Part shown: piece by piece, positions 9,001 through 46,782 of the stretch | How positions within the stretch are numbered: position 1 is the stretch's first letter | Layout: each line of letters opens with the position of its first letter | DNA from: a virus | Taxonomy: Duplodnaviria; Caudoviricetes | Virus record (IMG/VR): IMGVR_UViG_3300037067_006130 | Span: 22,413 to 86,412 of that record | Strand: one strand, 5' to 3' | DNA length: 64,000 nt | The notes under the pieces: model-generated | Told to the model about the DNA's origin: nothing | The model's input: only the letters and a program-made list of their open reading frames with translations | Database searches by the model: none | Position numbers and translations under genes: made by a program

Positions 9001-11972
9001 CAAGTGCTTTTGAAAAGAAAAGAATGCAGGAAAGTCTTGATGCGGTAGAGGAAGCAAAACAATTCCCATACCAACCAACAATGGGATATCAAGAGGTTTA
9101 TAAAAGAAGTAGGCATGTAGTTCCTGAAGGGATTGATATGAATACTCCAAAATCAATGCGGGAATATTCTAGATATCTCGAGATGATTAAGGAATTTAAA
9201 ACGCTTAACGATTTTTCTGATATCATAAACAAGGAACCAGAACGAATACTAAAGATTTTCAGAGAGATTCAGTTTAATGATAAGAAGTACATAACACCTT
9301 TCAAAAAACTTATCATTGAATTAATGCATGCCAAGATGCTTGCTGAACGTATTCGTTTTGAGAATAGAGAAGGTCAACGTGCTTTCCCTTTGATAACAGG
9401 AATGCTTGGTGATTGGATGGTTAATCCCGGTGATAAAATTCTTGAACGCTTATTCGGGCAAATCATTACTAATCCTTCATGGAGAATGATTCATACCATT
9501 CCTAACTACTTCGTAGCAGAAAACGTTGCGATGGACCACATGACTCATGCTCTATACAAAGAAAACTATGAAATGTCAATGGTTAGTGATGAGTTGGCTA
9601 AATGGAATTCAAAGATTAAGGCAGATCCAATGTTTAGAATGTCAGATATCATTACAATTCGTAATGGTTCTTGGTATCTTAAACATCCATCAACCATAAG
9701 TGGAAGCGGATTAGATTCTGAATTTGCGAACTATATCTATGAGAAATGGGAGAAATACGAAGGGGTAAGCCATGATGTTACAAAACCTATTCGCATACCA
9801 TCTCAGTCAGCATCAGTTAGTGAGTTAAATGAACGATATGCAAGTTTAAATCTAGGACCATTACTTACCAGAAGAATTAGAAATGCATCACTACCTGATC
9901 CATGGGATAATGAATCAGTAACCTATAAAGGACAAACCAAACGCTTAATTGATTGGAAGAAATATTTTATAGCACAACTCGTTACAACCAAACAGTACGA
10001 CGAAATTTATGGTACTGGCGCTCGTCAGGTTCTATCTCTTGGTGGAAAATTAATGACGATTAATGATGGTGTTCTTAACCAGTTAAGGTACGAAGCGAGA
10101 AAAGAGTACAAAAAGTCAAGCGTAGAGATACTAAGATTAAACTTTGGTAAGGCAAGAGAAACAGCAATTCCTAGCGACAAGGTAATCCGAGATTTTGAGC
10201 AAGGTTTTAAAAAGTTAATTCATGCCTATGCACATGAAGAATCGAATGCAGTTGTAGACTACCTGGCAACTAAAATTCGCAAGATTGAGCAGGAAAAAAA
10301 TTCTTCCTATCAGGCAACTGCTGAATACATCAGCAATATGCTTCGCATTATTGGCCATGAGAAAAGGGATATCCCTAACGATTATTTTAAAGTATTCGAT
10401 TCGTATATACGATTTACGAACAGAATGTTTTCTCATGTTGTTCTTGGTGCGAATCCAATCGTTCAGTTAGGAAACTATGTTGCTGGTGATGCTACTACGC
10501 TAATCAGTATGCCTGAAATGCTTATGAAAGGATATAAGGAGGCGATTATCAATCCTAAAAATCTTAAAAAAGCATGGATTCTAATGACAGCCTATAAGGT
10601 TTTAAACCTAAGTCATAGTTTAAGACTTGAAGATGCTAGTCGTTTAAGACAATGGTTGGATAATAAAGAGTACTGGTTCTTAGATAAAACAGAAAAAGCC
10701 GTTGCTCTTAAAGTATTCCTTGCCCTATGCGGAAAACAACTTGATGCATACGACAACAATGCTAAACTTATTAAAGGTCGTGAAAAAGATGAGATAAGCC
10801 TTGAACAGATTAAGTATATCGTTGACATCATGGCTTTCACACAAGGCCCATATAGTACATCATCAAAACCACCTGCAGCGTATTCAACAGGTGGAAATCT
10901 TGCATTACTATTTAAAGTTTGGATGCTTACTCGTAAGCACGACATGTTTGCTCGACCATATACCGATAAACGAGGTATGGAAAGAGCAGGATTTATCTCG
11001 AGAGAAACAATCGGACTATTGGCCATTGCAAACTTTAACAAAAAGTCTTTTGAGGAAAGGAAACGACTAACCGAAGAGGCCGATCAGAAACAGTTTAAAG
11101 GCTATTTTAGCTACGAAACGTGGTTAGAGCATAAGATGAGGCAGAGTAAATATGAAAAAGGTTCTAATGGGGATTATAAGATTCCTTATGATAGGAAAAC
11201 GCTTGAGAATATTACCAAAGCATCATTAGCGATTGCCTATACCGCACTTGTGTACTATCTAATTCATAAAAAAGAGGATGATGATCCTTACGGAGAAAAG
11301 GCTTCAGCAGATTACTGGTTTAGAACGATAATTCTAGGCCCAGTGGCAACGTTTACTTTCTTAGATCCTGATAAGATCATGAACCCATCAAAGCTAAAAG
11401 CATCTGATTTTTTTCCTCAGATTAGAGTTTGGGAATCAATGATGAGAGGTGCGTCTGATTTTGGTGGACTTGTATATGAGTTCTTTAAACGTCGTTCAGA
11501 TAAAAATTATCGTAATCCGAATTTATACTACGGAAAAGATAGTAAATCTAAGATGGGTACCGAAGGAGAATCTAGAATTCCTGAAGATTTCTTTAATCTG
11601 ATTGAAATGGGTGGTGTTATGAAGCAAATAGCGATTGCCTACCATCAATATGAATTAGACGATAAATTTCCGTTCTATAAAAAGAAACAAACGGTGCTCG
11701 ATAAGGAGGGTGCCAAGAAATTTAATACTTCAATCGATCTGATTAAGGAGCAACAACGACTAAAAATGACTCCTGAAATGCTCGAAAGATATGAGAAAAT
11801 GCGGATAAAGAGAGATTCTGTAATTAATGCAAGAAAAACTCAGCTATTTGATGCTAAGTTTAAAGAAAATCCGACTAAATTTGAAGAAATTAAGAAAGAG
11901 GTCGATGATAAGGGTAAACTTTCGGTAAGAAAAACCCAGGCACGTATTAACGCACTACAAAAAAAGAAATAG
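3..11972 (+). CDS. Giant virion-associated RNA polymerase / polyvalent protein (5'-truncated, >=3989 aa)
   Basis: The frame of ORF 207..11972 is open back to the window edge (codons from nt 3, no stop). Motifs: AGKDFDADG (DxDxD, 2796-2810), Walker A ASIGTGKS (5268-5291), HELAH (6021-6035), SLOG-like IISGGQLGVD (~6288-6776), HEYGH (7044-7058), PD..DFK nuclease (7875-7928). Lies upstream of tail genes, as do crAss-like virion RNAPs. Confidence 0.8.
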   Translation, partial: DFDDYLLSSLYENNVNWDTFLSYLNFYSTVDLHRFESIKIFINGKDANKYERTFLNPEFDLDSLIKPFMSKINNFRIDHKDGTHSEGEKALSTRIGQYINEHNKFVREYDHENPNKAKIFEHDLQFLEDVTGISKEIWRDHYFYDNDKKENETLMRVVDEKGNEKYVKTVFNSFKDIIDFNHYKANESIEDLTSLGIKKIDLPKGSTFVDSKPYYAPDKTSLSSKMMGSFAGKYNTQVGKEKKSNKEFMFDFMTKGVKGVFANIVKLSTSKKGGLGLMVRDLDGKQFAAYVQDFPALKTLKKAFDVQEHPFMQKLKKLGVQPTIMYQQGIKGYDFEKGNKKENSIENQHISPEDFWVSQMIQFFDGDKTYYANAGQFSDRKMLLHVNAPKLSRTKSPVASEKWLTENLPDYEDVVQAYISDYGERIKTTFNIDHAGLENFVKDFVYNFARNTKDLMEIIHGNLKQYDGGFIQILKRGATRTSTGLGTIPTSGIPREFKVMVAEDLKELGFNDSEFAVMDGLAIGSSKFMANYGKNLGSIYNRVLELGDFKTSKSLVDFLDDKGMRTICKANFVDISVFVDTFGGAKWKALADFMDKNGIDVFTTDKAVKLNGSKLLDNPHSSSKGSLALFKKDGTLNDIPTEHIEKFKQTWSLDNVISQQELRKKVGAEGKGKVPIQLKTNLIALPSFSGYLEHVNKQIDITLAELEKKFNGMTKPEEIKSFVIELFTKEFANVTIDPDTGEENILDSEGSKLDPKNLEGNALLVYRRLSSGASINEPFIRESIVRKVLSYIEREGLTLDGNRQGTYLIPDVFGHLKDYRPSKDSRYTLLPQVAANLPGGRYPKFFVTEKEAISHIEKNSKQHSDLYNDKGKLNDWEVEEVDGKFMVPGEMVFVNFVPGTNYHSHPLGRLTLRSVGNSSSVSATLASRAGKDFDADGAYLLFLFKDKQGNIILDESKKGRSNQSILAIKKDFNDSNNLQMLMNPIDTEKYDVPVLKVIDKLYPPDKSRTFDKKLYWHPWALQEARIISLDGVNLKAIATNHATTYSYLNAIKPDIKKFTAKNGKQYTTSFPIPRYDDKGKQQGSIKLDGIPEDVFNVYKEHHGNITNLCFDNMTDPKIGRMGYNVWTSNLFEFALINDSSLSSKNYKTAQLLDKAVTQRIKELSIFFNRPVFKMFAVECDRFNKSNEFYSTSEVQKLAFTEVERMFNSKEPADVVALDKLMKYSSDLNVIKGVQKLTEQTPKSYEEYAASLDSIKRLMTNGLYFYDTRAFLNDTQRELTPLLENAIKSLMAAENLAFKKSIETSKIAQFVVHEIKNKIALEKGSERGVWLGTETVKKIMNNLQAFISLNALVKDVEPGTIADKLINDFPMYKTKFMNNKFMDFVQVEDRADITDIKNIKLREEKTIQVPTIFRTINLTPEQLKEIHDDFDALPAELKDALYTYMIYEHGIKNAITTGTYYQFMSDKFLNEKAKVIESEMQRWEQNDFGELTAGQISQVLVDNIKEFLKGNRGKVRFKYETKHKYDVQDLKNNFSEFVGSFSLADHQKYANIKTEAQFIKFIEAKGVTYEDFKTALIYHITENGIKVNPKTMISDYFSNPENFVKVEKMDHKMASADNITGKDTTTLVESEKGNRTASTRSFPLGSFKNENLAYAEKDIPGRLIRLEGGKELYVVEKVEQLTKDVLADPTFPERWSKKELWTPEYFKKVLGGPTVHEGSWQTTWRKIDRSELKMAHAGGNKVANELPIDYHGSIVFASIGTGKSVFVSQKQGVLDADDLLREILDDHGIEYDVNNFGLKGYENIDTIWDDLRQLLTDKLNEGHTIFGSNFFLLHEDLGKDLVKYALLEKDTNLLHDRTTQRAKAEGRNEIQIDYLNRRVRQEVDAFKDLGKNRKELGGKFVSDHFNPETQSKLGNISEKVVFGKLEVINTNQGRTNELSLKDLSERILTMNPEIEKLVNKLILSYPNSKVILYLDKIDPLGSAALGTDNNIEMYKDSVGEGFEQRLYHELAHLETKDKINKDKQLRSELEKLLALSRKETTTPGLYGYSNVHDFAAEYISNPEFKKELSGAIVNKLDKLFKDKEIKNQYTNQTTTGIIKIISGGQLGVDMAGLDAAKEIGIETGGTAAAGYKQSVSKEKNINNKNLKITYGLKEGKTTRRQGKFGEYNDVYHQRTIDNAQEADGTIWFGKEDSPGGKLTLGREAQRGKPEPLVNPNNVKEIKDWVINNNIKILNVAGNREWTNPGIYNKARRILVDALKSNGDIIKNQLPKTAHEALLTNDPELAEFMIDHLVKSFPEIEMFKSRDNFIKFCETNAKRGLVFDTRAIGHAFANAVYIDPKKAFQSTPVHEYGHIYYDSLPDSNTSKKILRQLFTENGLSLSEIDENIVFEIGRAGVKLAINQLELSKKNKLEKELPKFWESVKKVWSKPKFKTKDDFINDIVEQMWNREPNENDRFNQQVVRNMIVEQDPNGDPTFEERTEPDGHNSLWEKGGKRLITPSGLKSILTSGNRFNEEDYIKIKLRQTQLGDRKSVTLAETKRLEAQVKFITESGNDVHSLCAAYFEEDPFISKALIAEILKKKVVDANEVLKGLVNLRKFIETKWGKNVKYYAEHTFANVKNRLAARPDLIIEVAPNELVYMDFKSSDASFFNKDGSYNGKVTETHGLFGKPLEFVPNTIENQRKVQFSLTKYILENQNNGSKEKNKIVGMYVVPISTSLNITQNEDGDWNYTIENVDMKKPIPITPMTDPAMRGIQKFIDRTKDLGKNYLKLKKEFGNTHNDYDLHNTGQLMDMMENITNTTLDKTSMFDVMNINKTGIANIEDTLLSISEDEGGKSYLPSDIHGDKSLPFEEILAASNPENPLNRKKLEASISDNVVESIKRKIAPLEHENWVENSTGHFYDPISKKGFEAIGYKDLVSEITSPAKVSEGDSIGIPIQYTDSSGNKRLITEIATIKSIHHDSKSPSKSYVIAESENGEFIRLDSLDPHDGILREVKKWITTSAFEKKRMQESLDAVEEAKQFPYQPTMGYQEVYKRSRHVVPEGIDMNTPKSMREYSRYLEMIKEFKTLNDFSDIINKEPERILKIFREIQFNDKKYITPFKKLIIELMHAKMLAERIRFENREGQRAFPLITGMLGDWMVNPGDKILERLFGQIITNPSWRMIHTIPNYFVAENVAMDHMTHALYKENYEMSMVSDELAKWNSKIKADPMFRMSDIITIRNGSWYLKHPSTISGSGLDSEFANYIYEKWEKYEGVSHDVTKPIRIPSQSASVSELNERYASLNLGPLLTRRIRNASLPDPWDNESVTYKGQTKRLIDWKKYFIAQLVTTKQYDEIYGTGARQVLSLGGKLMTINDGVLNQLRYEARKEYKKSSVEILRLNFGKARETAIPSDKVIRDFEQGFKKLIHAYAHEESNAVVDYLATKIRKIEQEKNSSYQATAEYISNMLRIIGHEKRDIPNDYFKVFDSYIRFTNRMFSHVVLGANPIVQLGNYVAGDATTLISMPEMLMKGYKEAIINPKNLKKAWILMTAYKVLNLSHSLRLEDASRLRQWLDNKEYWFLDKTEKAVALKVFLALCGKQLDAYDNNAKLIKGREKDEISLEQIKYIVDIMAFTQGPYSTSSKPPAAYSTGGNLALLFKVWMLTRKHDMFARPYTDKRGMERAGFISRETIGLLAIANFNKKSFEERKRLTEEADQKQFKGYFSYETWLEHKMRQSKYEKGSNGDYKIPYDRKTLENITKASLAIAYTALVYYLIHKKEDDDPYGEKASADYWFRTIILGPVATFTFLDPDKIMNPSKLKASDFFPQIRVWESMMRGASDFGGLVYEFFKRRSDKNYRNPNLYYGKDSKSKMGTEGESRIPEDFFNLIEMGGVMKQIAIAYHQYELDDKFPFYKKKQTVLDKEGAKKFNTSIDLIKEQQRLKMTPEMLERYEKMRIKRDSVINARKTQLFDAKFKENPTKFEEIKKEVDDKGKLSVRKTQARINALQKKK

Positions 11973-28924: not shown

Positions 28925-29374
28925 TTATAAGTTAATTTCTTTAGGTTTTCCTACTCCAAGTGATTCGTTCTCAGGAATAGGTTGTGCGTTTGGAAATTTT
29001 CTTCTATCCACAATCATTCCTGAAGGAAGTATGCCAGCGTAACCCTCTTTTGATATCTCTGCTAGTTCTAAAATAGTATCGATATAGATTTTTTGTATTC
29101 GATCTATCTCAGCAGCAATCATAGCACCTGCAACTATTAACTTCTGCAGATCTGATTTACCTTCTATTTTAGCACAAACATTTTCATCCCAGTGTTCCGG
29201 CCAGGGTAATCCGCTAACAGTACCAATACATTTTGTAATTCCTATGCGTAATGGGAGTATCTTAAATGGTCCTGATGGAGTTGAATTCTCAGCAACATCT
29301 CGTATAACCGAATGACCATGTTTCTCAATCTGTTCTGCCCTTTCAATGGCAATCAGTTCAATTCCTGTTTTCAT
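28925..29374 (-). CDS. Hypothetical phage protein (149 aa)
   Basis: MKTGIELIAIER..Q...WP..W...L..AGA.IAAEIDR pattern common in phages. Confidence 0.65.
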   Translation of the reverse strand: MKTGIELIAIERAEQIEKHGHSVIRDVAENSTPSGPFKILPLRIGITKCIGTVSGLPWPEHWDENVCAKIEGKSDLQKLIVAGAMIAAEIDRIQKIYIDTILELAEISKEGYAGILPSGMIVDRRKFPNAQPIPENESLGVGKPKEINL

Positions 29375-29377
29375 CGT

Positions 29378-31918
29378 TTAGATTTTAAAGTTAGGATCAT
29401 ACTTATGATCGGATATCATCTTTTGTTTAATCTTGGAATACTGTCCGTTAAGAACCGTTCCTGATACATCATAACCCCATTCTGATAACTTCTTTAGCTG
29501 CCAGTACTGGGCAGGTTCATTAGAGATTAGTTCGTTACACATACCCTTAGTGTATTCCACATCGGGTTCCCATAGACCAAGCTTCTTTAGATAGTCTAGC
29601 TGAGCAGGTGTAGCTAAGTCCTGAGTCCACTCACCACCGTAAATCTTTAGTTCTGGTAGTTTAAGTAGGTTGATACGACCATCCTGTTTAACCTTAGTGT
29701 CAATCTTCGCTTCTCTACGCTGCTTCTCGGCAAAGAGAAGTTTCTCTTTATTCTCTTTGGTAACAAAGGTTTTTTCTTTTGCGGTCTTGCCCTTATCGAG
29801 AGTCCATGTATTGATTAGGTTGTGCTTGCCGGAATTGTCTACAAAGTCAAGAATCTTACAGTCATTCAAACCGTACTTCGTTCTAAACTCAGGACTTTTT
29901 AAACGGCATCCTCTACCAATCGACTGCATGTAGAAAGTTAGCGATTGGGTAGGTCTAGCCATTAGCACAGCACCTACATCTGCGTAATCCCATCCTTCAA
30001 TGAGAATCTGTACGTTCAAAAGCACCTTCGTTTCTTTGCCCCTAAATCGGCTATTTACGCCTTTACGGTCAGGACAAACGTTTTCATCCGCAACGAGTAT
30101 TTCGCATGAAATTCCGCTTTGTATGAATGCTTCTCGAAGGTGTATCGCATGAAGGACATCAACACAAAAACCGATAGCCTGTCTATCACTACAATATTTC
30201 TGATAGGATTCAACGATAAGCTTATTTCTTTCCTTAGTATCAACTAGGTTAGATAACTCATTAATCTTGAAGTCGCCAGCCTGTCGATGTACCTTAGAAA
30301 GATCTGTTTCTGTCTTAATACGAATACCATCAAGCTCACAAAGAAATCCATCCTCTATCGCTTTGGCGATATTATACTCAAAGGTGATATCGTCAAATAA
30401 ATCCGCAAGAGATAGTCCATCCAACCGATATGGAGTAGCAGTCCAACCAACGGTTAGCTGTGGTTTAAAATGCTGTACCGCTTTCACCCATGTACGAGCA
30501 AGGTATCGATGACAATTATGTACTAATATATTTTCTACGAAATAGTTGTTATTATCTTCTACTTCCAGATTGTAGACAAAATTGTCTGAACCACTAAGTT
30601 TGGATTTAGATCTACTTCTTCGTTTGTAAATCTTAGAACAGTCCAACCCAACGAATTCAAAACGTTCGTTTTCCGTTTGTCTAAGAACTTCCAACGTTTT
30701 AACTTGTGAGTTTTTCCATCTATTTCTATCGCAAGTTTCGAGGGAGGATCGGCTAGATCTACTTTGTAATGATATGGCAAACAAGTTTCTGAAGACGTTT
30801 GATTTTTCGTTAGGATCACATATTCCATTGGAAGTTCTGTCAGGTTGTGAATCATTAATTGTTGCTTCGTTAGTTGACCATTTCCTCCGCGAGAAAGGAA
30901 TGTTTTTCCTTGCATACTTCGAATCATCTTTGTCTTGGCTTCCGGATTGAACATCGGATTGTTTTTCTTCATTCTTTCCGAACAATCCCTTTTGTTTACT
31001 AGTATCATTGATTTTCTTGCAATTCCCTTGAAGTACTCCTTTTTGCATTTGATAGAACAGCAACCAGAACCTCTTATAACTGAAGCCATGAATGTTTTCC
31101 GTTTTCTTCCTTCTTTGGCCCAAGACTCCCAACCAAATATTTTTCCACAGTTGTTGCAAACCAAAGTTGGATTTAATCTTAATTTTGTTTTTCTTGCTTT
31201 TTCGCAAATAGAAGAACAAGTTTCTCTGTGTGTCTGAGAATGAAACTTTATTCCACAATTTTTGCATATACCTGAACGTAATCGAGTCATATAGATAGCA
31301 CATTGATGTATGGCAAGTATATGACAAGTATATTTCTTTTGCAAGGCAATAACCTATTTTGTTTATATAAATAGGATGGTTCTTTGTGCAAGAAAATACT
31401 CCAAAATCGTATAGATACTTTGGTTTTTCTTTAACAATCACATTTATTACTTTTTTTAGTTCAATGCGATTTTCTTGATGATTAAAAGAATGAACATAAT
31501 CACCAATTTCTATGATTTCTATTGGTTGTTTATCAACCAAGGTTCCTGCGGGAAAACATTCGTCAATCTGTACCAAGGCGAAATGGTTTGGGCTAATCCT
31601 ATCCAGTCGGTTAATCAACGTTTGAGGAGAGGCAACCACGACTTTCTTATCAATCTCAAATCGTGATCCCTTGATTACCCCAACGTTCATAAACCCATGG
31701 AACTTCTCCATGTCTTTCACTGCCTGCTCAATCAACTCTTCGCTATGAGCTAAGAACAGGCTATTCTTAAACTTGGTAGATACGTTGACCGCCGCAATTC
31801 GCTTGCCCGTTCCGGTAGCTTGTATAACTAACTGTCGTTTAAGCCCTTTCTCCTTAAAAGCGGTGTGTATCGCCTTAAAGCAGGCAACCTGATATGGTCG
31901 CCAATTTACGTCAATCAT
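29378..31918 (-). CDS. Superfamily II (DExH) helicase, intein-containing
   Basis: WRPYQ, ATGTGK, DE|CH split by intein, TATPYR, ILIEGWD, QSIGRGCR. Confidence 0.92.
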   Translation of the reverse strand: MIDVNWRPYQVACFKAIHTAFKEKGLKRQLVIQATGTGKRIAAVNVSTKFKNSLFLAHSEELIEQAVKDMEKFHGFMNVGVIKGSRFEIDKKVVVASPQTLINRLDRISPNHFALVQIDECFPAGTLVDKQPIEIIEIGDYVHSFNHQENRIELKKVINVIVKEKPKYLYDFGVFSCTKNHPIYINKIGYCLAKEIYLSYTCHTSMCYLYDSITFRYMQKLWNKVSFSDTQRNLFFYLRKSKKNKIKIKSNFGLQQLWKNIWLGVLGQRRKKTENIHGFSYKRFWLLFYQMQKGVLQGNCKKINDTSKQKGLFGKNEEKQSDVQSGSQDKDDSKYARKNIPFSRRKWSTNEATINDSQPDRTSNGICDPNEKSNVFRNLFAISLQSRSSRSSLETCDRNRWKNSQVKTLEVLRQTENERFEFVGLDCSKIYKRRSRSKSKLSGSDNFVYNLEVEDNNNYFVENILVHNCHRYLARTWVKAVQHFKPQLTVGWTATPYRLDGLSLADLFDDITFEYNIAKAIEDGFLCELDGIRIKTETDLSKVHRQAGDFKINELSNLVDTKERNKLIVESYQKYCSDRQAIGFCVDVLHAIHLREAFIQSGISCEILVADENVCPDRKGVNSRFRGKETKVLLNVQILIEGWDYADVGAVLMARPTQSLTFYMQSIGRGCRLKSPEFRTKYGLNDCKILDFVDNSGKHNLINTWTLDKGKTAKEKTFVTKENKEKLLFAEKQRREAKIDTKVKQDGRINLLKLPELKIYGGEWTQDLATPAQLDYLKKLGLWEPDVEYTKGMCNELISNEPAQYWQLKKLSEWGYDVSGTVLNGQYSKIKQKMISDHKYDPNFKI
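30515..31558 (-). mobile_element. Intein (348 aa) in the helicase Walker B motif
   Basis: Block A CFPAGTLV, block B CTKNHP, block F VYNLEV..NYFV, terminal HN followed by Cys(+1). Confidence 0.93.
30559..31344 (-). CDS. Zn-finger + DUF559/Vsr-like endonuclease overprinted within the intein (likely start 31290)
   Basis: CKNC..C..C and CNNC..C..C motifs; YKVDLA...LAIEIDGKTH...D..K...L..LGWTVLRFTN; +1 frame relative to the intein. Confidence 0.88.
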   Translation of the reverse strand: MQKKYTCHILAIHQCAIYMTRLRSGICKNCGIKFHSQTHRETCSSICEKARKTKLRLNPTLVCNNCGKIFGWESWAKEGRKRKTFMASVIRGSGCCSIKCKKEYFKGIARKSMILVNKRDCSERMKKNNPMFNPEAKTKMIRSMQGKTFLSRGGNGQLTKQQLMIHNLTELPMEYVILTKNQTSSETCLPYHYKVDLADPPSKLAIEIDGKTHKLKRWKFLDKRKTNVLNSLGWTVLRFTNEEVDLNPNLVVQTILSTIWK

Positions 31919-32309
31919 GTTTACTTGCTAGTTTAAAGGATGGTATGAAGTACTCGTGTTTGCTCTCTGGCCATCCTTGGATTGTTTTATGCCTGTCTTG
32001 GAGAAGGGGAATTAACTCCTTCCATTTCACATGGGAAATAAAGCACCGCCAAATATTCTCATCCTTTACCCATCTTGGATGGTTCGGATGAATATCTGTA
32101 CGAACGTTAAACTTGTATTTTAGCTTCTCTTTCCCATTATGATCTCCAATACGAACAGAGCACATTCGGCTATCCTTAAATCGGATATATACGCTTCCGG
32201 TGTTAGCGACATGCCATATATACGATTCGATACCGACCTCATCAAGAGCAGCGACTATCTTATTCGCAATACTCTCATGAGTTTCTTTGATCTGTTTATG
32301 CTTTTTCAT
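31911..32309 (-). CDS. Hypothetical protein (132 aa)
   Basis: SVYIRF...VRIGDH...YKFN motif. Confidence 0.6.
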   Translation of the reverse strand: MKKHKQIKETHESIANKIVAALDEVGIESYIWHVANTGSVYIRFKDSRMCSVRIGDHNGKEKLKYKFNVRTDIHPNHPRWVKDENIWRCFISHVKWKELIPLLQDRHKTIQGWPESKHEYFIPSFKLASKHD

Positions 32310-37770: not shown

Positions 37771-38553
37771 TTATCCCCAGTTTTCTTCTGTTTGGTCGGT
37801 TTCTGTTGCTTCGGTAGTTTCTTTAGGTTCATCAGGGTTGGATTCGTTCTGGTTGAACAACTCGTTCTTAGGAGTAGTATCAACAGCTTTACCCTTATTT
37901 ACTGTAGTCTTGGTGGTCGTCTTTGCGGCATCCTCCTTCTTTACATCAGGTTTCTTCGCATCAGCCACTTTCTTCTCGGCTATCTTAACAGCTTCCTTCT
38001 CGAGAGATATCTTCTGCTCGATTAACGCTTGAAGATCGGCAACCTTAGCCTTAACGGAAACGAATTCCTTAATCTGAGGTAGCACGTTCATCATGATTTC
38101 CTGAGCAGTACCGAACATGGTCACATCAATACCAGGTTTAATCGTGATGAGCAAATCAATCCTCTTGGGTTGTGTAGCACTTGGAGTAAGCGTTAACTTC
38201 TCGATGATATCACATACCGATTCCCAACCTGATAGGTCGAAGATAACCCCAACTCCGGGTTTTATTGCAGCATTCCCTTTCTCTTCGGTTGGGCCTTTAA
38301 TGACTTCATTGCTCTTTTCCACAACTTTGTTCTGTTCTGTACTTGCAGCAACTTCGCTGAAGTATAGTTCAAAAGAAGATTGTTTCAGCTTTACTTGAGT
38401 TACACCATCAATGATGGTATACCCGAAGCCAATAGCATCGTTAATCTTTTCCTTTTCAAAACCATACTTCTTACCGATGGTTAACTTGTTTACGGGCGCG
38501 TTAGCGTCATCCGAATGTGAGTTTAGAACACAAAATCCTTTTACAGGTGCCAT
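37771..38553 (-). CDS. PRTRC protein E-like
   Basis: Position upstream of protein C; GTAQEI motif followed by a K/E/A-rich tail. Confidence 0.55.
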   Translation of the reverse strand: MAPVKGFCVLNSHSDDANAPVNKLTIGKKYGFEKEKINDAIGFGYTIIDGVTQVKLKQSSFELYFSEVAASTEQNKVVEKSNEVIKGPTEEKGNAAIKPGVGVIFDLSGWESVCDIIEKLTLTPSATQPKRIDLLITIKPGIDVTMFGTAQEIMMNVLPQIKEFVSVKAKVADLQALIEQKISLEKEAVKIAEKKVADAKKPDVKKEDAAKTTTKTTVNKGKAVDTTPKNELFNQNESNPDEPKETTEATETDQTEENWG

Positions 38554-38571
38554 AAATTTATTTGTTTGTTA

Positions 38572-38829
38572 TTAGAATGGACAATCATCTCTTGGACCTT
38601 GAATAACCAATCTTTGCCAAAAGTCCAAGGTCGTTATATCTACCTTTGGCTTCTCTACTATCTTGCCTGTTCTCGCGAACGTCTTTGCTTCCTCGTCTAA
38701 GGCAAGCATGGATTTTCCGATAGCCCATTTGACATAATTTTTGCCATCTGAGCTATCGAGAACTTCCTTCATCGTTTTCCCTTTAAACTTTCCGAAGAAG
38801 AAAACATCATCAAGGGAATAGATTTTCAT
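38572..38829 (-). CDS. DUF3820/ExoX-C-terminal-like protein
   Basis: FFFGKFKGKTMKEV...YVKWA. Confidence 0.65.
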   Translation of the reverse strand: MKIYSLDDVFFFGKFKGKTMKEVLDSSDGKNYVKWAIGKSMLALDEEAKTFARTGKIVEKPKVDITTLDFWQRLVIQGPRDDCPF

Positions 38830-39815
38830 TACATGAACTCTTGGTCAGGTGCTACTTCGTTTCCTGTTGCTACGAATGCCTGATTCGTTAAATCCTCAAC
38901 TGGTGTGAAATAGGTTTGATTAGCCATTTCCATCAGTACTGGATATTCCTCAAGTATCGCATCGTACCATACTTTAGGGGCATGGTAGATATTCACCATA
39001 TCCACATCGGTTGGCTTGTACAGGTTAGTACCTATATTGTATAGATCCCAAACAGTACCCAATCTCGAATCCTCCTTCAACCGCTTGTTGATATCCTGAG
39101 TTAGCACGCTCATTTGAGTCATAGTAAATGGCGCTACAACGCTACCATAGGCTTGCTCAACCGATTTACGGTATAGGTTACCTACCAAACGGTCTACCTC
39201 TGATACCTTATCAATCTCCACGCTCTTCATTCCTTCAATCATTCTAAGGTCGAATTGCTCCTTCTCTGCCATTGTATCAAGCCAGTGGTTTAACACCTCA
39301 AGCATTTTATCGAAAGGAACCTTATTCTGACCATAGGTAGTCATTAGGTTCTTACCGAATACGCACATGTTTGAGCATATCCTAACGTTTTGTCCAAAGG
39401 CCACAAGCACACCGTTCTTATTGAACGATAAAGCGATTGAGGTATTGGTATCACCTTCCCTTGCAGGGTTCACGTTAATCTTGGTGATAAGCTGGTTAAA
39501 CAGCCACTTTGATATCGGAGTATTCTCTGCAGTGTAGATACCACGTTCTGCTGAGGTAAGAATCTGTTGTGATTCTGACTTCTGCACGTAGATATTATCC
39601 AACGCATGAGGAATTCCTCTTTCGCCAAGCTGGTTGGTAATCCTATCAATCAGCTCCCATGATTGTATGGGGCGAGAAATGATTTCCCTACCATTCTGCA
39701 TACGCACGAGTTGGCTCTCGCGAAGGTGGTCCAGCGAGATTAGACTCGCCTTGCCATCACCTTCAAGTTTGTAAATAATTTCACTATTCTCCATTGGTCT
39801 CTTGAATTGATTCAA
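38829..39815 (-). CDS. DUF932-like protein
   Basis: GQNVRICSNM...WDLYNIGT. Confidence 0.6.
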   Translation of the reverse strand: MNQFKRPMENSEIIYKLEGDGKASLISLDHLRESQLVRMQNGREIISRPIQSWELIDRITNQLGERGIPHALDNIYVQKSESQQILTSAERGIYTAENTPISKWLFNQLITKINVNPAREGDTNTSIALSFNKNGVLVAFGQNVRICSNMCVFGKNLMTTYGQNKVPFDKMLEVLNHWLDTMAEKEQFDLRMIEGMKSVEIDKVSEVDRLVGNLYRKSVEQAYGSVVAPFTMTQMSVLTQDINKRLKEDSRLGTVWDLYNIGTNLYKPTDVDMVNIYHAPKVWYDAILEEYPVLMEMANQTYFTPVEDLTNQAFVATGNEVAPDQEFM

Positions 39816-42183: not shown

Positions 42184-42236
42184 TGTATTTACTGGTTTGT
42201 ATGGATTGCACAGAATTGCATTACGTTTATATGTAG

Positions 42237-42416
42237 TTACATGCCATTGCTCGCACTAACTTTTGGCTTGTCTTTTAACTCAAATACCTTGCAACTTTTT
42301 ACACAAAACACTTCTGGTTGCAACTTGCTCATACATATCCCTGAAAAATCTGCTCGGTAATGCTTGCAAGTTATTTGCACATCCCATTTTGATTTAGGTT
42401 TTTTCATAAGTCTCAT
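42237..42416 (-). CDS. Cassette ORF, 59 aa Cys-rich (not in ORF track)
   Basis: MRLMKKPK...SASNGM*; the stop TAA lies in the GCATGTAAC core site. Confidence 0.55.
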   Translation of the reverse strand: MRLMKKPKSKWDVQITCKHYRADFSGICMSKLQPEVFCVKSCKVFELKDKPKVSASNGM

Positions 42417-42558
42417 TTTTACTTTTGCCCTTTCGCTACATCCCGCAATGGCATGTAACGATCCGGCGGTTGGGTAGTACGAAATTCTTTAATTCCTATT
42501 CACATTGTTGCGTTTGCTTGCAACAGGTACGTAACAGACAGTTAAACCCATTTAATAA

Positions 42559-42717
42559 TTAAATTTTCTTATTCTTAATTGTAATTGTAAGTAAAAACAT
42601 TAAGCAGCAGATGTATATTTTACCTTTAATATTGTCTATGAATAATCCTATCCATATATCATACCAAGCAAATGATAGTCTACATCTGCTTATTTCAATT
42701 AATTTAAAATCTTTCAT
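42559..42717 (-). CDS. 52-aa ORF inside an attC-like loop (not in ORF track)
   Basis: MKDFKLIEISRCRLSFAWYDIWIGLFID...; the WYDxWIG motif is typical of a small phage protein family. Confidence 0.6.
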   Translation of the reverse strand: MKDFKLIEISRCRLSFAWYDIWIGLFIDNIKGKIYICCLMFLLTITIKNKKI

Positions 42718-42790
42718 GTGGTATCAAAATTTTATTATTAAACGTGTTCAACCGCCGGATCGTTATAAAACATTAGCCACCGCACGGCTG

Positions 42791-43132
42791 TTAATATAAA
42801 TCTTCGCTAAATAACAAGTCAGTATCCCTATAAGTTTGCTTTTGTTCTACCGCCAATATTGCTGATTGTTTGCGGTCTAAAAATCTATCCTTACTTGTTA
42901 AAAAGCCTTGCGTGGCTTTTCCGTTTGCTTCATTCATCCTATGTGCCATACTTTCGTTGCCATTAATAATAAATGCTGTTACATAGCAATTGTGATGCCT
43001 TCTACCGCAAACTACAAAACCACTTTCGATATTCCTTGGCTGGTGTTCGTGTTTAATACCATCATCAAAATGTATTGCTGCACACAAAATGTATTCAGGC
43101 TTTTTAACATTGCTAAACAATTCCTCTTCCAT
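42791..43132 (-). CDS. Cassette ORF, conserved phage hypothetical (113 aa)
   Basis: CAAI...QP.NI..G.V.CG.RH.NC...QGFLT...F.DR...L.SEDLY. Confidence 0.75.
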   Translation of the reverse strand: MEEELFSNVKKPEYILCAAIHFDDGIKHEHQPRNIESGFVVCGRRHHNCYVTAFIINGNESMAHRMNEANGKATQGFLTSKDRFLDRKQSAILAVEQKQTYRDTDLLFSEDLY

Positions 43133-43232
43133 CGCACTTTAACGTTTTATAACAGCAAATTAAAAACATGCTTTGCTGTCTGTTGATACTATGTGCGTTG
43201 CATGTTCACGCACGATTTTTAATTTGCAGCCG

Positions 43233-43457
43233 TTATAGCCAATTAAAAGAAACCGTTGCCACATCTTTAATCTTTGATTCAATTTCAGCGTTTTCAGTTT
43301 CGTAATTCTTAATAGCTATTTCTATTTGTCTTATCCCAATGGACGTTTTCTCCCATCCATTTTCTAACCTATCTTTTAATTCCGAATATTTCAATTTTAA
43401 CGATAGCTTATTTGAGCCATATTTATCACATAGTCTGCATAGTTCTTTTATATCCAT
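43233..43457 (-). CDS. Cassette ORF (74 aa)
   Basis: Stop TAA lies within the GGCTATAAC core. Confidence 0.6.
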   Translation of the reverse strand: MDIKELCRLCDKYGSNKLSLKLKYSELKDRLENGWEKTSIGIRQIEIAIKNYETENAEIESKIKDVATVSFNWL

Positions 43458-43610
43458 TTGATTAAAATTAACTGGCTATAACCCGTGGTATAGTTAATTG
43501 CCGTGTTTGTACTAATTTTAAGCGTTACCACCCGCTTGTAATTTTGTGTAATTTGATAGGAAAGTAGTCCGCAATCGGCAACTAACCATACCACCACCGT
43601 TAACGGCAAG

Positions 43611-43961
43611 CTAAGCAACACCCTCCGATAACCTTTCGTTAAGCCGATTCATTTTGAAATCAACACGCTCATTTACTGGCTCTGAACCAAATATCTTTTC
43701 AGCCTGTTTAATCATTATTTTTACATCGGCAATTTCATCAATAACATTCTTTTCTTTTTGCGTCATATCGCCACGTAATCGCTTTAATTTCTGCAACGCC
43801 AATGCAAGTTCTAAGCATTCCTCAATTACCATTTCTAATTGAGCATCTATTCCCCATGTTTCAATTGCCTTATCGAGAATTTTATCATCAATAAAGCCAG
43901 CCGTTAACACGTGGTTAACGTCATTGCCTTTTTCTTCGTTGATAATGTTCTGGTTTTTCAT
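43611..43961 (-). CDS. MazG-like nucleotide pyrophosphohydrolase (cassette)
   Basis: IEECLEL...K....N..DEIADV.IM..Q. Confidence 0.75.
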   Translation of the reverse strand: MKNQNIINEEKGNDVNHVLTAGFIDDKILDKAIETWGIDAQLEMVIEECLELALALQKLKRLRGDMTQKEKNVIDEIADVKIMIKQAEKIFGSEPVNERVDFKMNRLNERLSEGVA

Positions 43962-44036
43962 GTTTTATGTTTCAATTAAAGTTTGTACTAAATTTTAAGG
44001 TCGGCAACGAACGCCAACCACCAACGTTATAAAACA

Positions 44037-44225
44037 TTAGCCATCCCGCAATAACACCTCAATTTCTTTGCGGTTTAATATTCTTTTTACCTCAGCAACC
44101 CACGCCAATACGGCTTTCTTATTTACTTTATCTATTTGTTCGGGGTCGTATAATTGTAACTTTATTTGTTTCAAAGCTGATTCAGCCTCACGCACCTTCT
44201 TATTAATTTCACTATTATTTGCCAT
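44037..44225 (-). CDS. Cassette ORF (62 aa)
   Basis: Bounded by core-site pair 44026/44246. Confidence 0.55.
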   Translation of the reverse strand: MANNSEINKKVREAESALKQIKLQLYDPEQIDKVNKKAVLAWVAEVKRILNRKEIEVLLRDG

Positions 44226-44524
44226 CGCACTTTAACGTTTTATAACAGCAAATTAAATCTATGCTTTGCTGTTGATTAATAACTAAGTTCATTGTTTGGG
44301 TCGCACATTTTTAATTTGCAACCGTTGTATGCCATTTGCCGCCAATGGTTCTTGTAACTTGAAACCTGATGAAGCGGCAAACGGAAGCCTACGCACAAGC
44401 CTCGCTCCATACAACAGGGTATATAACCAACCCTTTCTAGTTTCATAGTTTTCATTATCGCTTGATAACTAATAATTAAATATTTTTTTGCTTACACACT
44501 TTGTCTGCTATCGCAGCCATAAAA

Positions 44525-45226
44525 TTAAAAACTGCGGTCTTTCTCCATGCGTTTTAAGCAATCCAATGGGTGTTCATTTGGTAGTAATGAATAACTACAT
44601 CCAATTGTTCCACCTTTCCAACTTCTTTTTTCTTTACCGCATTCTTTTGAAAAATGAACATCAATAGTTCTATTAACTGATTTGAATAATCCAGTCCATT
44701 TTAACCATCTAGGTCTCCATTCTCTTTCTTCAACGTAAATAGTTGTAGGTATTATGCTATTGTCGTATTTATCCGTATAGTCATAAGTCCAAGATTTTTG
44801 CTTTTGTTTCCATTCTTCCTTATAAAACTCTTTGTTATTTCCTCTTGTTTCATGCTCCCAAACTTCAATATGCTCAAAAGACTCTGCCTGTACATTTTTC
44901 AACAGGATTGATGTTCTTACCCAATCTTTAGTTATAAAAGGAATATTCCATGTCCACCACTTATTACCACCATTCATATTTCCTTTTCCGCCTTTGTAAA
45001 TCCAAAAGGTATTATTATGAATAGCAATTCCCCATTTCGGAGCAACACATTCATCAGTCCATTTATTTCTAAATGGTAAAATTATTGCAAGGCGAAAAAA
45101 CACCAAGCAAATGTTTATTCGTGGTCTGTTATCAAAATAACCGCACAGTTCAAAACTTATATCAAAACTGTTGGTAAAGTAGAATATCATCCACTTATTC
45201 TCATAAATCCATTTTTCTTTTTTCAT
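44525..45226 (-). CDS. Trp-rich hypothetical protein (233 aa) inside an attC-like loop
   Basis: Flanked by an 18-bp perfect IR and the outer attC arms. Confidence 0.75.
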   Translation of the reverse strand: MKKEKWIYENKWMIFYFTNSFDISFELCGYFDNRPRINICLVFFRLAIILPFRNKWTDECVAPKWGIAIHNNTFWIYKGGKGNMNGGNKWWTWNIPFITKDWVRTSILLKNVQAESFEHIEVWEHETRGNNKEFYKEEWKQKQKSWTYDYTDKYDNSIIPTTIYVEEREWRPRWLKWTGLFKSVNRTIDVHFSKECGKEKRSWKGGTIGCSYSLLPNEHPLDCLKRMEKDRSF

Positions 45227-45340
45227 TGTTCTTTAGTTTAAGATTTTAAAATTGCCCCCTTAAAAAATATTTAATTATTCATTTCGTTTCAAAAGTTAGT
45301 TCCTGCTGGGCTGGTCATATACCCGACCGTTACCGCCCAT

Positions 45341-45547
45341 TTAAAGAAACGGAACTTTGTGAATTGTCCATCCGTTGTGAATAATCGGAAAAGGCTTCGA
45401 TTTTAAAGAATGATATGGTAATATATCAAAGCCTTTAGCCTCACACAACTTTTTAAAATTGCCCCAAACTTCTAAAGTTGGGGCAATTACTACTATTACG
45501 TTTTGGCGGTTCATATTATTTAACAATTGCGTTTGCTTTTTCAGCAT
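45341..45547 (-). CDS. Small cassette ORF (likely start MNRQ)
   Basis: Second gene of the promoter-bearing cassette. Confidence 0.55.
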   Translation of the reverse strand: MLKKQTQLLNNMNRQNVIVVIAPTLEVWGNFKKLCEAKGFDILPYHSLKSKPFPIIHNGWTIHKVPFL

Positions 45548-45803
45548 ACACGGTTAATCTGTCAAATAACTTGCTGTTTACTTCAAGTTCAGCATCTTCA
45601 TTTATTTTGCAAATGTCGCCAGCACCGTTTGCGCCGTTACCTTTTTGGCTTAAAAATAAAGTTCCGTTTTTAAAGCCTTTGCGTACATATAAGCTTTTTG
45701 TAGCAACGCCAATTAGTTTTTCACTATCAATTACTAAGGTTTCACCATGTTTTACAGGTTCGCCAGCGTTGTTTGTTTTTTCGATGATTGTTAAAATTGC
45801 CAT
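45516..45803 (-). CDS. Cassette ORF (95 aa)
   Basis: Downstream of the cassette-internal promoter. Confidence 0.6.
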   Translation of the reverse strand: MAILTIIEKTNNAGEPVKHGETLVIDSEKLIGVATKSLYVRKGFKNGTLFLSQKGNGANGAGDICKINEDAELEVNSKLFDRLTVYAEKANAIVK

Positions 45804-45845
45804 TTTTTTAGTTTTTAGTGAAACAGCTTTGTTGTTGTTTCATGA

Positions 45846-45877
45846 TGTAAATATACAACGCATATTTCTATTTTGCA
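45846..45877 (-). promoter_or_regulatory. Bacteroidota-type promoter inside a cassette
   Basis: Minus strand CTTG-caaaatagaaatatgcgttg-TATATTTA (variant of TAnnTTTG). Confidence 0.55.
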
Positions 45878-46028
45878 AGTATTTTTGTAATTATTTTCAA
45901 AATATTTCTAATTATTTTTAGACAACAAACAAAAACGGGCGGTAACACGTGCTATACGTCAGTTTTGCAGATAGTTTCGTGCTTAATTGATAGTTTCTTC
46001 AAGCAAAACCGAACGTATAGCACCATCG

Positions 46029-46349
46029 TTAGCAACTATTGCGTGATAAATATTGTTTAAGTGCTACTTCGTTGTTATCAACATTGGTTAAAATATTATG
46101 ATTAATCCATAACCAATCTGTATAATCACGCAACAGAGCCTCACGCTCGACATCCTCGCACTTGCTAACAGCGGGTTTATTGCAGTTGCTAGCCTCTTTA
46201 GATACTTTTTGCACACGCTCTCGCATTAACGTAATGCAATCCACATAAGCATCTTTTCTGGCTCTATTTTCTTTTAATCCGTCTGGGATGCTATTTGATT
46301 TATCCCTAAGTATTTCTATTAAGTCTGTTAATGTTGCTATGGTTTCCAT
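46029..46349 (-). CDS. ORF spanning an attC-like arm (106 aa)
   Basis: The arm translates as SNCNKPAVSK; the stop lies in the next core site. Confidence 0.6.
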   Translation of the reverse strand: METIATLTDLIEILRDKSNSIPDGLKENRARKDAYVDCITLMRERVQKVSKEASNCNKPAVSKCEDVEREALLRDYTDWLWINHNILTNVDNNEVALKQYLSRNSC

Positions 46350-46469
46350 TAACGTTAAGTTTTTATCATCGCTCGTAATTGTTAGTTTATACTGTTACTA
46401 TTTATTAATGTAATGGTATCAGCAACCGCCAATTTACCACAGTCACGTTGTATGCCATTTGCCGCCCTT

Positions 46470-46520
46470 AAAAAAAAGGAACAGAGGCTTGACGGGTTTT
46501 AGACCGGTTACCTCTGCTCC
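46470..46520 (-). terminator. Rho-independent terminator upstream of the array
   Basis: GGAGCAGAGG...CCTCTGTTCC-T8 on the minus strand. Confidence 0.75.
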
Positions 46521-46581: not shown

Positions 46582-46782
46582 CTACTTTCTCTTAGCATCC
46601 TCTCTGGCTATCTTAATCGCTGTTGGATCGAGCTCAGATAGTTCCGTCGTGTAGACGAGCAAGGATTTAAAACATTCGGTTGGATCATCCCCTGGTTCGA
46701 GTACTGCGGTTACCTCTGCGGTAATCGTTTCGAAGTTCTGAATGTTCTTAACCTTTCTAGCGGTGATTGTTGTTATTTCCAT
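46582..46782 (-). CDS. Hypothetical protein (66 aa)
   Basis: N.ETI..EVTA.L..G.D motif. Confidence 0.6.
   Translation of the reverse strand: MEITTITARKVKNIQNFETITAEVTAVLEPGDDPTECFKSLLVYTTELSELDPTAIKIAREDAKRK

Follow-up and report, generated by a model that had tools for sequence, protein, structure and literature searches.

Can a phage that lacks a recombinase carry its genes as mobile cassettes, and which enzyme would then move them? These questions are raised by a 4.3-kb block of small genes and hairpins in a 64,000-nucleotide (nt) window comprising bases 22413-86412 of the 86.4-kb IMG/VR virus record IMGVR_UViG_3300037067_006130, which is estimated to be 56% complete. The window (the whole stretch of DNA analyzed, to which all coordinates refer unless a contig is named) encodes a large terminase, a primase-helicase, a helicase, a tail fibre and an open reading frame (ORF) of nearly 4000 amino acids (aa), and its genes lie on the minus strand across 20-55 kb. 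The block itself, at 42236-46450, has both its genes and the folding strand of its hairpins on the minus strand and consists of seven well-formed cassettes and one doubtful cassette. As first noted, it is AT-richer than its surroundings, with a GC content of 0.33-0.35 as compared to 0.39-0.42. The analyses below identify this array as a real, orphan, integron-like cluster of mobile cassettes that lacks a recombinase and belongs to a phage of Bacteroidota. It is likely that the phage is of virulent type and that these recombinase-less mobile gene cassettes sit in its accessory region.

Site structure and exchange at GTTA cores

Each site is an imperfect hairpin of 85-127 nt. On the plus strand, the order of elements is GTTA-x, a minus-strand gene, x'-TAAC, a spacer of 1-2 nt, the hairpin, a spacer of 4-5 nt and GTTA, where x and x' are the two ends of one cassette. 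Read in the sense of the gene, a site begins with TAAC and a 4-5-nt spacer, continues through 7 bp, a G.T pair, 4 bp, a second G.T pair and at least 6 bp to the loop, and closes with the returning arm, a 1-2-nt spacer and GTTA. Five of the array sites, measuring 85-125 nt, span YAAC to GTTR and fall within the size range of attC-type imperfect palindromes (~57-141 nt). The initial annotation, made from the sequence of this stretch, had remarked on the unequal spacing of the two arms and had proposed that the ends of a cassette are complementary to each other rather than across a site; both observations were borne out. In a survey of end pairing that covered 34 cassettes from the window and 13 viral loci, the ends of one and the same cassette formed a perfect inverted repeat with a median length of 9 nt (mode, 10 nt), whereas the inverted repeat across a site had a median of 4 nt, corresponding to the core only (n = 80).

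Stem mismatches were counted in one representative from each of 42 site clusters that are unrelated in sequence. On the plus strand, A.C mismatches (43) were in large excess over G.T/T.G (3) and C.A (1), and in many sites they lay at stem positions 8 and 13. This excess indicates, therefore, that the gene-sense strand is the one that folds, with G.T wobbles in its stem. Alignment of 27 sites from other phages gave a 19-bp stem with compensatory changes in 16 of the 19 pairs, and one G.U pair was present in 24 of the 27 sites. A covariance model built from these 27 sites, with no sequence from the window included (model R1), found array sites at 43150-43235, 43479-43602, 43905-44029, 44243-44327 and 45943-46031, all on the minus strand, with scores of 32-106 bits and exact TAAC...GTTA ends. 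R1 had no other match in the 64-kb window at E <= 1. A simple site finder applied to the same window returned five matches, four of them in the array, as compared to a mean of 1.6 after shuffling. A chance origin of the sites was rejected because the finder exceeded this mean and the models match nothing elsewhere in the window.

Many of the phage site loops hold a start codon and a common motif. The motif reads roughly CAC-AAA-TATCAAA-TAC and lies 5-35 nt upstream of the start codon; examples are found in the window site at 43479-43602 (minus strand) and at L012:4403-4527 and L018:2396-2520 in two other viral contigs. The Bacteroidota -7 promoter motif (TAnnTTTG) was also considered for these loops and was rejected by eye, as its near-matches were wrongly spaced and on the wrong strand.

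Whole-cassette gain and loss occurs between near-identical phages, with the segments cut at the GTTA cores. Contigs L013, L015 and L014 are 99.9-100% identical, yet they differ by whole cassettes: L015 has one extra cassette of 610 nt, and L014 has a further 1225 nt that amount to two cassettes, one of which carries an N6_N4 methyltransferase gene. All of the insertion junctions fall on C-GTTA-T, and the sites involved are otherwise unrelated in sequence. Since the junction sites are alike only in C-GTTA-T, homologous exchange is excluded, and homologous recombination between repeats was rejected for this reason. The unit gained or lost reads x-gene-x'-TAAC-site-G on the plus strand; a site therefore moves together with its downstream gene, where downstream is taken in that gene's own reading direction. 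Homology blocks in other pairs of contigs have similar boundaries, with the blocks of L006/L012 and L008/L018 running from GTTA to GTTA and that of L007/L022 having GTTA at one end. A comparison of cassettes in other phages had been suggested as a check on the initial annotation. The breakpoints at C-GTTA-T, together with the covarying stem, support its claim that these are mobile cassettes recombining at G|TT on a folded single strand.

The same sites are spread among phages that differ in most other respects. A 23-mer from the 124-nt site at 43479-43602 retrieved 18 viral contigs from IMG/VR, mostly from unrelated phages, with copies of the site that are ~90% identical. The flanks of these copies are unrelated, and similarity stops at GTTA on one side. 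At several of the loci, 4-8 sites lie in an array and have the same asymmetric spacers. The 462-kb uncultured phage LR756500.1 also contains a stretch with 93% identity to the site. Four phage genomes that were compared have almost no genes in common; a tail fibre, a primase-helicase and similar genes are all that they share, and the comparison yielded no phage recombinase common to them. Cargo in the relatives includes the N6_N4 methyltransferase and Mom.

Three further types of mobile element were considered. A transposon that is bounded by terminal inverted repeats and duplicates a GTTA target was rejected because the two ends of the segment gained do not form inverted repeats, and double-stranded Xer modules of the pdif type were rejected because arm sequence is not conserved and the spacers are unequal in length. 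IS200/IS605 and REP/RAYT elements were set aside by eye on architecture only, and no search for a Y1/HUH transposase was made.

Host arrays and the candidate recombinase

Neither a PF00589 tyrosine recombinase nor an IntI was found in the record of this phage or in 15 other site-carrying phage records (16 in all, five of them estimated to be at least 90% complete). A search for an integrase had been proposed at the outset; it failed in the phage records and succeeded in Bacteroidota genomes, where both IntI and a second, shorter type of recombinase were found.

R1 gave full-length scores of 60-108 bits in arrays of 80 of the 151 Bacteroidota genomes sampled, and these host-array sites of ~125 nt resemble the phage sites when placed side by side. 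At the head of one host array lies a gene for a 347-aa tyrosine recombinase that scores 225 bits with NF040815 and 211 bits with TIGR02249, for which the cut-off is 265. The protein is 33% identical to classical IntI, with alignment gaps around the region of the extra segment of IntI and ~75 additional N-terminal residues. Homologues (43-64% identity) are encoded within ~2-12 kb of R1-type arrays in the other four genomes checked, and a recombinase is thus found nearby in five of five. Among the cargo of the host arrays that were examined are an AIPR protein, a UvrD-type helicase, a reverse transcriptase and a methyltransferase. All host arrays that were examined have their ORFs on the strand opposite to the one matched by the model, whereas the ORFs of the window and the other phage loci are on the matched strand itself.

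Two features of the host arrays were observed in passing. A gene for a 278-aa reverse transcriptase (RVT_1) at L089:17048-17884 lies between the array recombinase and the first recognizable site. Five ORFs of 324 aa occur in one chromosomal array, each near a site (L088:3058-4032, 7902-8876 and 10523-11497; L089:3017-3991 and 9799-10773), and the one that was scanned against Pfam is a transposase of the IS110/IS1111 family. These ORFs recall the IS1111-attC elements, which target integron attC sites.

The chromosomal arrays with the short recombinase are probably those described as recombinase-associated acquired interbacterial defence 1 (rAID-1), a match made by description and not by sequence. 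rAID-1 comprises an XerD-family recombinase and integron-like intergenic repeats and was reported in 226 of 423 Bacteroidales (Ross et al. 2019, bioRxiv 10.1101/471110). The host and phage arrays have in common the site family, the TAAC...GTTA cores, the spacer asymmetry and the positions of the G.T pairs, and both are arrays of single-gene units with cargo for conflict. They differ in three respects. The phage array has no recombinase and is an orphan rather than a complete system; the folding strand is the one that carries its genes, which places each site upstream of the gene; and its cargo is for counter-defence, as compared to defence and immunity in the host.

Judged by R1 score, the closest relatives of the array sites are the ~125-nt sites of the short-recombinase arrays and not the attC sites of classical IntI. 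A host enzyme probably acts in trans on the phage sites, which is the most economical reading because the 16 phage records contain no PF00589 protein and the four phage genomes have nearly no common genes. The most likely candidate is the short, IntI-like (XerD-family) recombinase that adjoins Bacteroidota arrays of the same site family. In the proposed mechanism, the gene-sense strand would fold when single-stranded, and a structure-specific tyrosine recombinase, supplied by the host in trans, would exchange one strand at AA|C of the 5' arm. Replication would presumably resolve the product, as in integrons. Cassettes would leave as putative circles, the stem being completed by pairing of x with x', and these circles could re-enter at any other site.

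The initial annotation favored a phage-borne set of clustered attC sites that has no integron integrase (CALIN) that uses a host or distant integrase. The absence of an integrase from the cluster and the likely use of a host enzyme stand, and the interpretation is right in kind; three points were revised, in that the sites do not belong to the classical IntI attC family, the gene polarity is reversed and the likely enzyme is the short recombinase. In its strict form, with ordinary attC sites recombined by a canonical host IntI, this explanation is the best of the alternatives. Canonical IntI (full length and above the TIGR02249 cut-off) was found in 90 of the 301 Bacteroidota genomes sampled. 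The attC sites beside four such IntI genes have the same spacer geometry as the phage sites, reading in the ORF sense x'-TAAC, A, 7 bp, an irregularity (an extra C) at position 16 and then the 5-nt spacer in GGGTC-GTTA-x, and the ends of their own cassettes pair over 9-12 nt. A second model, R2, was built from ~50 attC sites beside canonical IntI; it ranks six array sites at the top of the 64-kb window (15-38 bits) and finds more than 40 sites in seven other phage loci, although its alignment was selected with R1 and the test is partly circular.

The R1 scores disfavor canonical IntI, as do the IntI1 assay described below and the gene orientation. R1 recognized ~50 IntI-linked attC sites over their full length, always antisense to the ORFs, but with only 10-23 bits as compared to the 60-108 bits on short-recombinase arrays. 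In separate searches, IntI-type attC sequence was scarce in viral contigs (one match), and no canonical IntI above the cut-off was present in five metagenome-assembled genomes with the 124-nt site, whose contigs carrying it are probably mis-binned phage DNA. Polaribacter phage P12002L (contig L060) provides a published test. It has three R2 sites and end pairings of 8-9 nt around three of its methyltransferase genes, and its site at 30008-30056 is the P12002L_attC1 of Qi et al. 2023 (PMC9892861) and a member of the site family of the array. Among the six phage attC sites in that study, P12002L_attC1 was the only one not recombined by IntI1 (PMC9892861). The methyltransferase cassettes of this phage lie at L060:29237-30056, 31311-32281 and 38087-38936, and the published 'attC2' (29174-29245) corresponds to the terminal junction of one array rather than to a typical site.

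Like integrons and CALINs, the phage array has imperfect hairpins with AAC/GTT cores, a G|TT boundary and self-pairing cassette ends. Unlike them, it has an end pairing of 9-13 bp and ORFs in the opposite orientation, rather than top-strand ORFs with a 3' attC, and the likely enzyme is without the IntI insertion. Its folding is strongly strand-specific with G.T enrichment, but the form differs from that of classical attC: G.T wobbles that are fixed, in many cases at positions 8 and 13 of the stem, replace the extrahelical bases, and the spacers are of 4-5 and 1-2 nt where classical attC has 5-6 nt in each arm (PMC5027507), although the IntI-linked attC sites of Bacteroidota have the phage-type spacers as well. 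A classical CALIN is unlikely on the grounds given above. The CALINs of virulent phages described by Qi et al. 2023 (PMC9892861) are also integrase-less site clusters in phages, to which the present comparison adds whole-cassette polymorphism. Both phage CALINs (PMC9892861) and rAID-1 are already published; in the literature searched, no account was found of phage arrays that are dense in sites of this family and show both precise cassette polymorphism and inverted polarity.

A less probable explanation is that the hairpins are RNA signals (terminators, processing sites or 5' leaders) of a polycistronic early transcript and that general recombination shuffles the genes, as with the promoter early stem-loop (PeSL) cassettes of T4-type phages. 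The folding strand is indeed the mRNA sense, its wobbles are compatible with G.U pairing, and the loops often contain the start codon and motif described above. PeSLs also give rise to cassette-like shuffling and mini-circles (PMC2839356), and like the present array they place small non-essential genes in a plastic region, with one stem-loop per gene, and move them as units (Arbiol et al. 2010, PMC2839356; PMC4122927). However, a PeSL is a promoter and terminator that recombines through the homology of direct repeats (PMC2839356; PMC4122927), whereas the array sites differ in sequence, cross over on a core of 4-6 nt and have cassette ends that co-vary, a pairing with no role in the PeSL model. 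The junctions on the 6-nt C-GTTA-T between dissimilar sites exclude homologous exchange. In the host chromosomes, sites of the same family fold antisense to the genes; the fold is not on the mRNA strand and is therefore a feature of the DNA. No PeSL-like promoter was identified at the array sites by eye, and no promoter scan was run. An explanation by RNA signals is accordingly very unlikely, and the sites could still have an additional RNA role in phages.

The most improbable alternative is a phage-encoded mover other than a tyrosine recombinase, such as a NinG/Rap junction nuclease, an HNH nuclease or an unknown protein: it would fit the lack of a tyrosine recombinase in every phage record examined and the NinG/Rap homologues in five sources with such sites, but the phages that carry the sites have almost no genes in common, NinG is widespread among phages at large and BLASTP did not detect it in the record of this phage, and a dedicated recombinase accompanies host arrays of the same sites.

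The individual cassettes and the junctions of the array

All cassettes are on the minus strand, and their limits are given on the plus strand from one G|TTA to the next. The eight end complementarities proposed in the initial annotation were each exact at the length claimed. Its count of eight complete sites was upheld in part: seven of the pairings flank cassette units, and the eighth is doubtful. Stop codons fall in the core at 42237, 43233 and 46029, as had been reported. The array carries Acb3, a MazG-like pyrophosphohydrolase, one phrog_839 protein and six or seven small ORFans.

Cassette 1 (42237-42762) contains a gene for 59 aa at 42237-42416 and pairs its ends at 42236-50/42445-59 (15/15). 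It is atypical in that its site, at 42456-42765, has perfect 17-nt arms (42456-72/42749-65), no spacer asymmetry and a loop of 276 nt, inside which lies a 52-aa ORF (42559-42717). The match of R2 to this site, at 42662-42765, is weak. The 52-aa ORF is bracketed by an imperfect 27-nt inverted repeat at 42541-42567/42726-42752 with GTTA/CAAC ends. The CAAC of this repeat overlaps the right arm of the outer site and may mark an insertion into a site.

Cassettes 2-5 are regular. Cassette 2 (42763-43232) encodes a 113-aa phrog_839 protein at 42791-43132, with end pairing at 42762-75/43140-53 (13/14) and an 86-nt site at 43150-43235 (R1, 34 bits). Cassette 3 (43233-43599) encodes 74 aa at 43233-43457, with its stop codon in the core; its ends pair at 43232-41/43473-82 (10/10), and its 124-nt site at 43479-43602 has the highest R1 score, 106 bits. 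Cassette 4 (43600-44026) carries the gene for the MazG-like nucleotide pyrophosphohydrolase (phrog_2245) at 43611-43961, with end pairing at 43599-607/43900-08 (9/9) and a site at 43905-44029 (R1, 54 bits). The start codon of this gene, at 43961, falls in the loop of its own site. Cassette 5 (44027-44324) encodes 62 aa at 44037-44225, with end pairing at 44026-35/44237-46 (10/10) and an 85-nt site at 44243-44327 (R1, 32 bits). Both ends and the following site of cassettes 2 and 5 are near-copies, and the encoded proteins are unrelated.

Cassette 6 (44325-45329) begins with an ORF-less body of 92 nt at 44324-44415, the ends of which pair at 44324-31/44408-15 (8/8), and continues with a site that has a long loop. 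The arms of this site lie at 44412-28/45314-32, with the pairing of 44417-28 to 45314-25 (11/12, with one A.C), and enclose a 233-aa gene at 44525-45226 that was assigned by PF25187 (8e-32) to Acb3, an inhibitor of the cyclic oligonucleotide-based antiphage signalling system (CBASS). A perfect 18-nt inverted repeat at 44471-44488/45262-45279 brackets the Acb3 gene within the loop and forms a second, nested level of bracketing. Cassette 7 (45330-46028) carries genes for 68 aa (45341-45547) and 95 aa (45516-45803) that overlap, along with end pairing at 45329-38/45937-46 (10/10) and an 89-nt site at 45943-46031 (R1, 41 bits; R2, 36 bits; z, -3.1). The doubtful cassette 8 (46029-46447) contains a 106-aa gene at 46029-46349. 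The pairing proposed for it, 46028-35/46162-69 (8/8), lies inside this ORF, and to its right neither a model match nor clear arms were found in 46166-46450.

The left junction with the phage backbone, at 42184-42239, ends in the GTTA at 42236 and has no recognizable hairpin. In integron terms it would occupy the place of an attI-like or secondary target half-site. The right junction, at 46446-46466, consists of CGTTGTATGCCATTTGCCGCC, which is identical to 44323-44343 at the start of the ORF-less cassette 6. The two copies of this 21-nt direct repeat may be a vestige of the entry of the block 44324-46446. On the minus strand, a terminator-like hairpin with a T run lies at ~46470-46515, downstream of the backbone gene 46582-46782. 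No tRNA genes and no credible Rfam match were found in the array region, and no close relatives of the phage were found by DNA search or through two flanking proteins.

Gene orientation and a proposed phage cassette pool

The phage cassettes are inverted relative to integron cassettes, with each site upstream of its own gene. GC skew suggests that the gene-sense strand, which folds, is also the strand most often single-stranded, a link that we infer. Phage cassettes may be equipped with expression signals of their own, because the site lies upstream of the gene and often includes its start codon. If exchanged, the cassettes of host and phage would be mutually silent.

We propose, tentatively and with somewhat less than even confidence, that Bacteroidota phages maintain a cassette pool of their own, inverted in orientation, and use integron-like host machinery on it in trans. 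Acb3, MazG-like proteins, methyltransferases and Mom would shuffle between unrelated phages, including 400-kb phages, on the same sites that their hosts use for defence and immunity genes, and the reversed polarity would make each phage cassette self-expressing and leave the cassettes of either side silent in the arrays of the other.

Several points weigh against the main reading, that of a recombinase-less cassette array on which a host enzyme acts. None of the phage records examined, that of this phage included, has a recombinase linked to it, and action in trans is therefore presumed. At ~56% completeness, the record could still encode an enzyme. The single published test of a site of this family was negative, but it used IntI1 and not the cognate enzyme (PMC9892861). 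Two of the array sites have loops of 276 and 886 nt, at which folding and recombination are putative. The probable identity of the chromosomal arrays with rAID-1 comes from matching descriptions rather than from sequence comparison.

If the main reading is correct, it would provide a testable mechanism by which virulent phages without other common genes exchange small accessory and counter-defence genes, namely one taken over from the host in which capture is site-specific and occurs on folded single-stranded DNA. It would join three separate literatures, those on integrons and CALINs, on the rAID-1 arrays of gut Bacteroidales and on phage anti-defence islands. In practical terms, the sites delimit candidate anti-defence genes in uncultured phages, and Polaribacter phage P12002L and its host are a cultured pair with the same sites that could be used experimentally. 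More broadly, these results suggest that the phage and host sides of the conflict draw on one recombination system.

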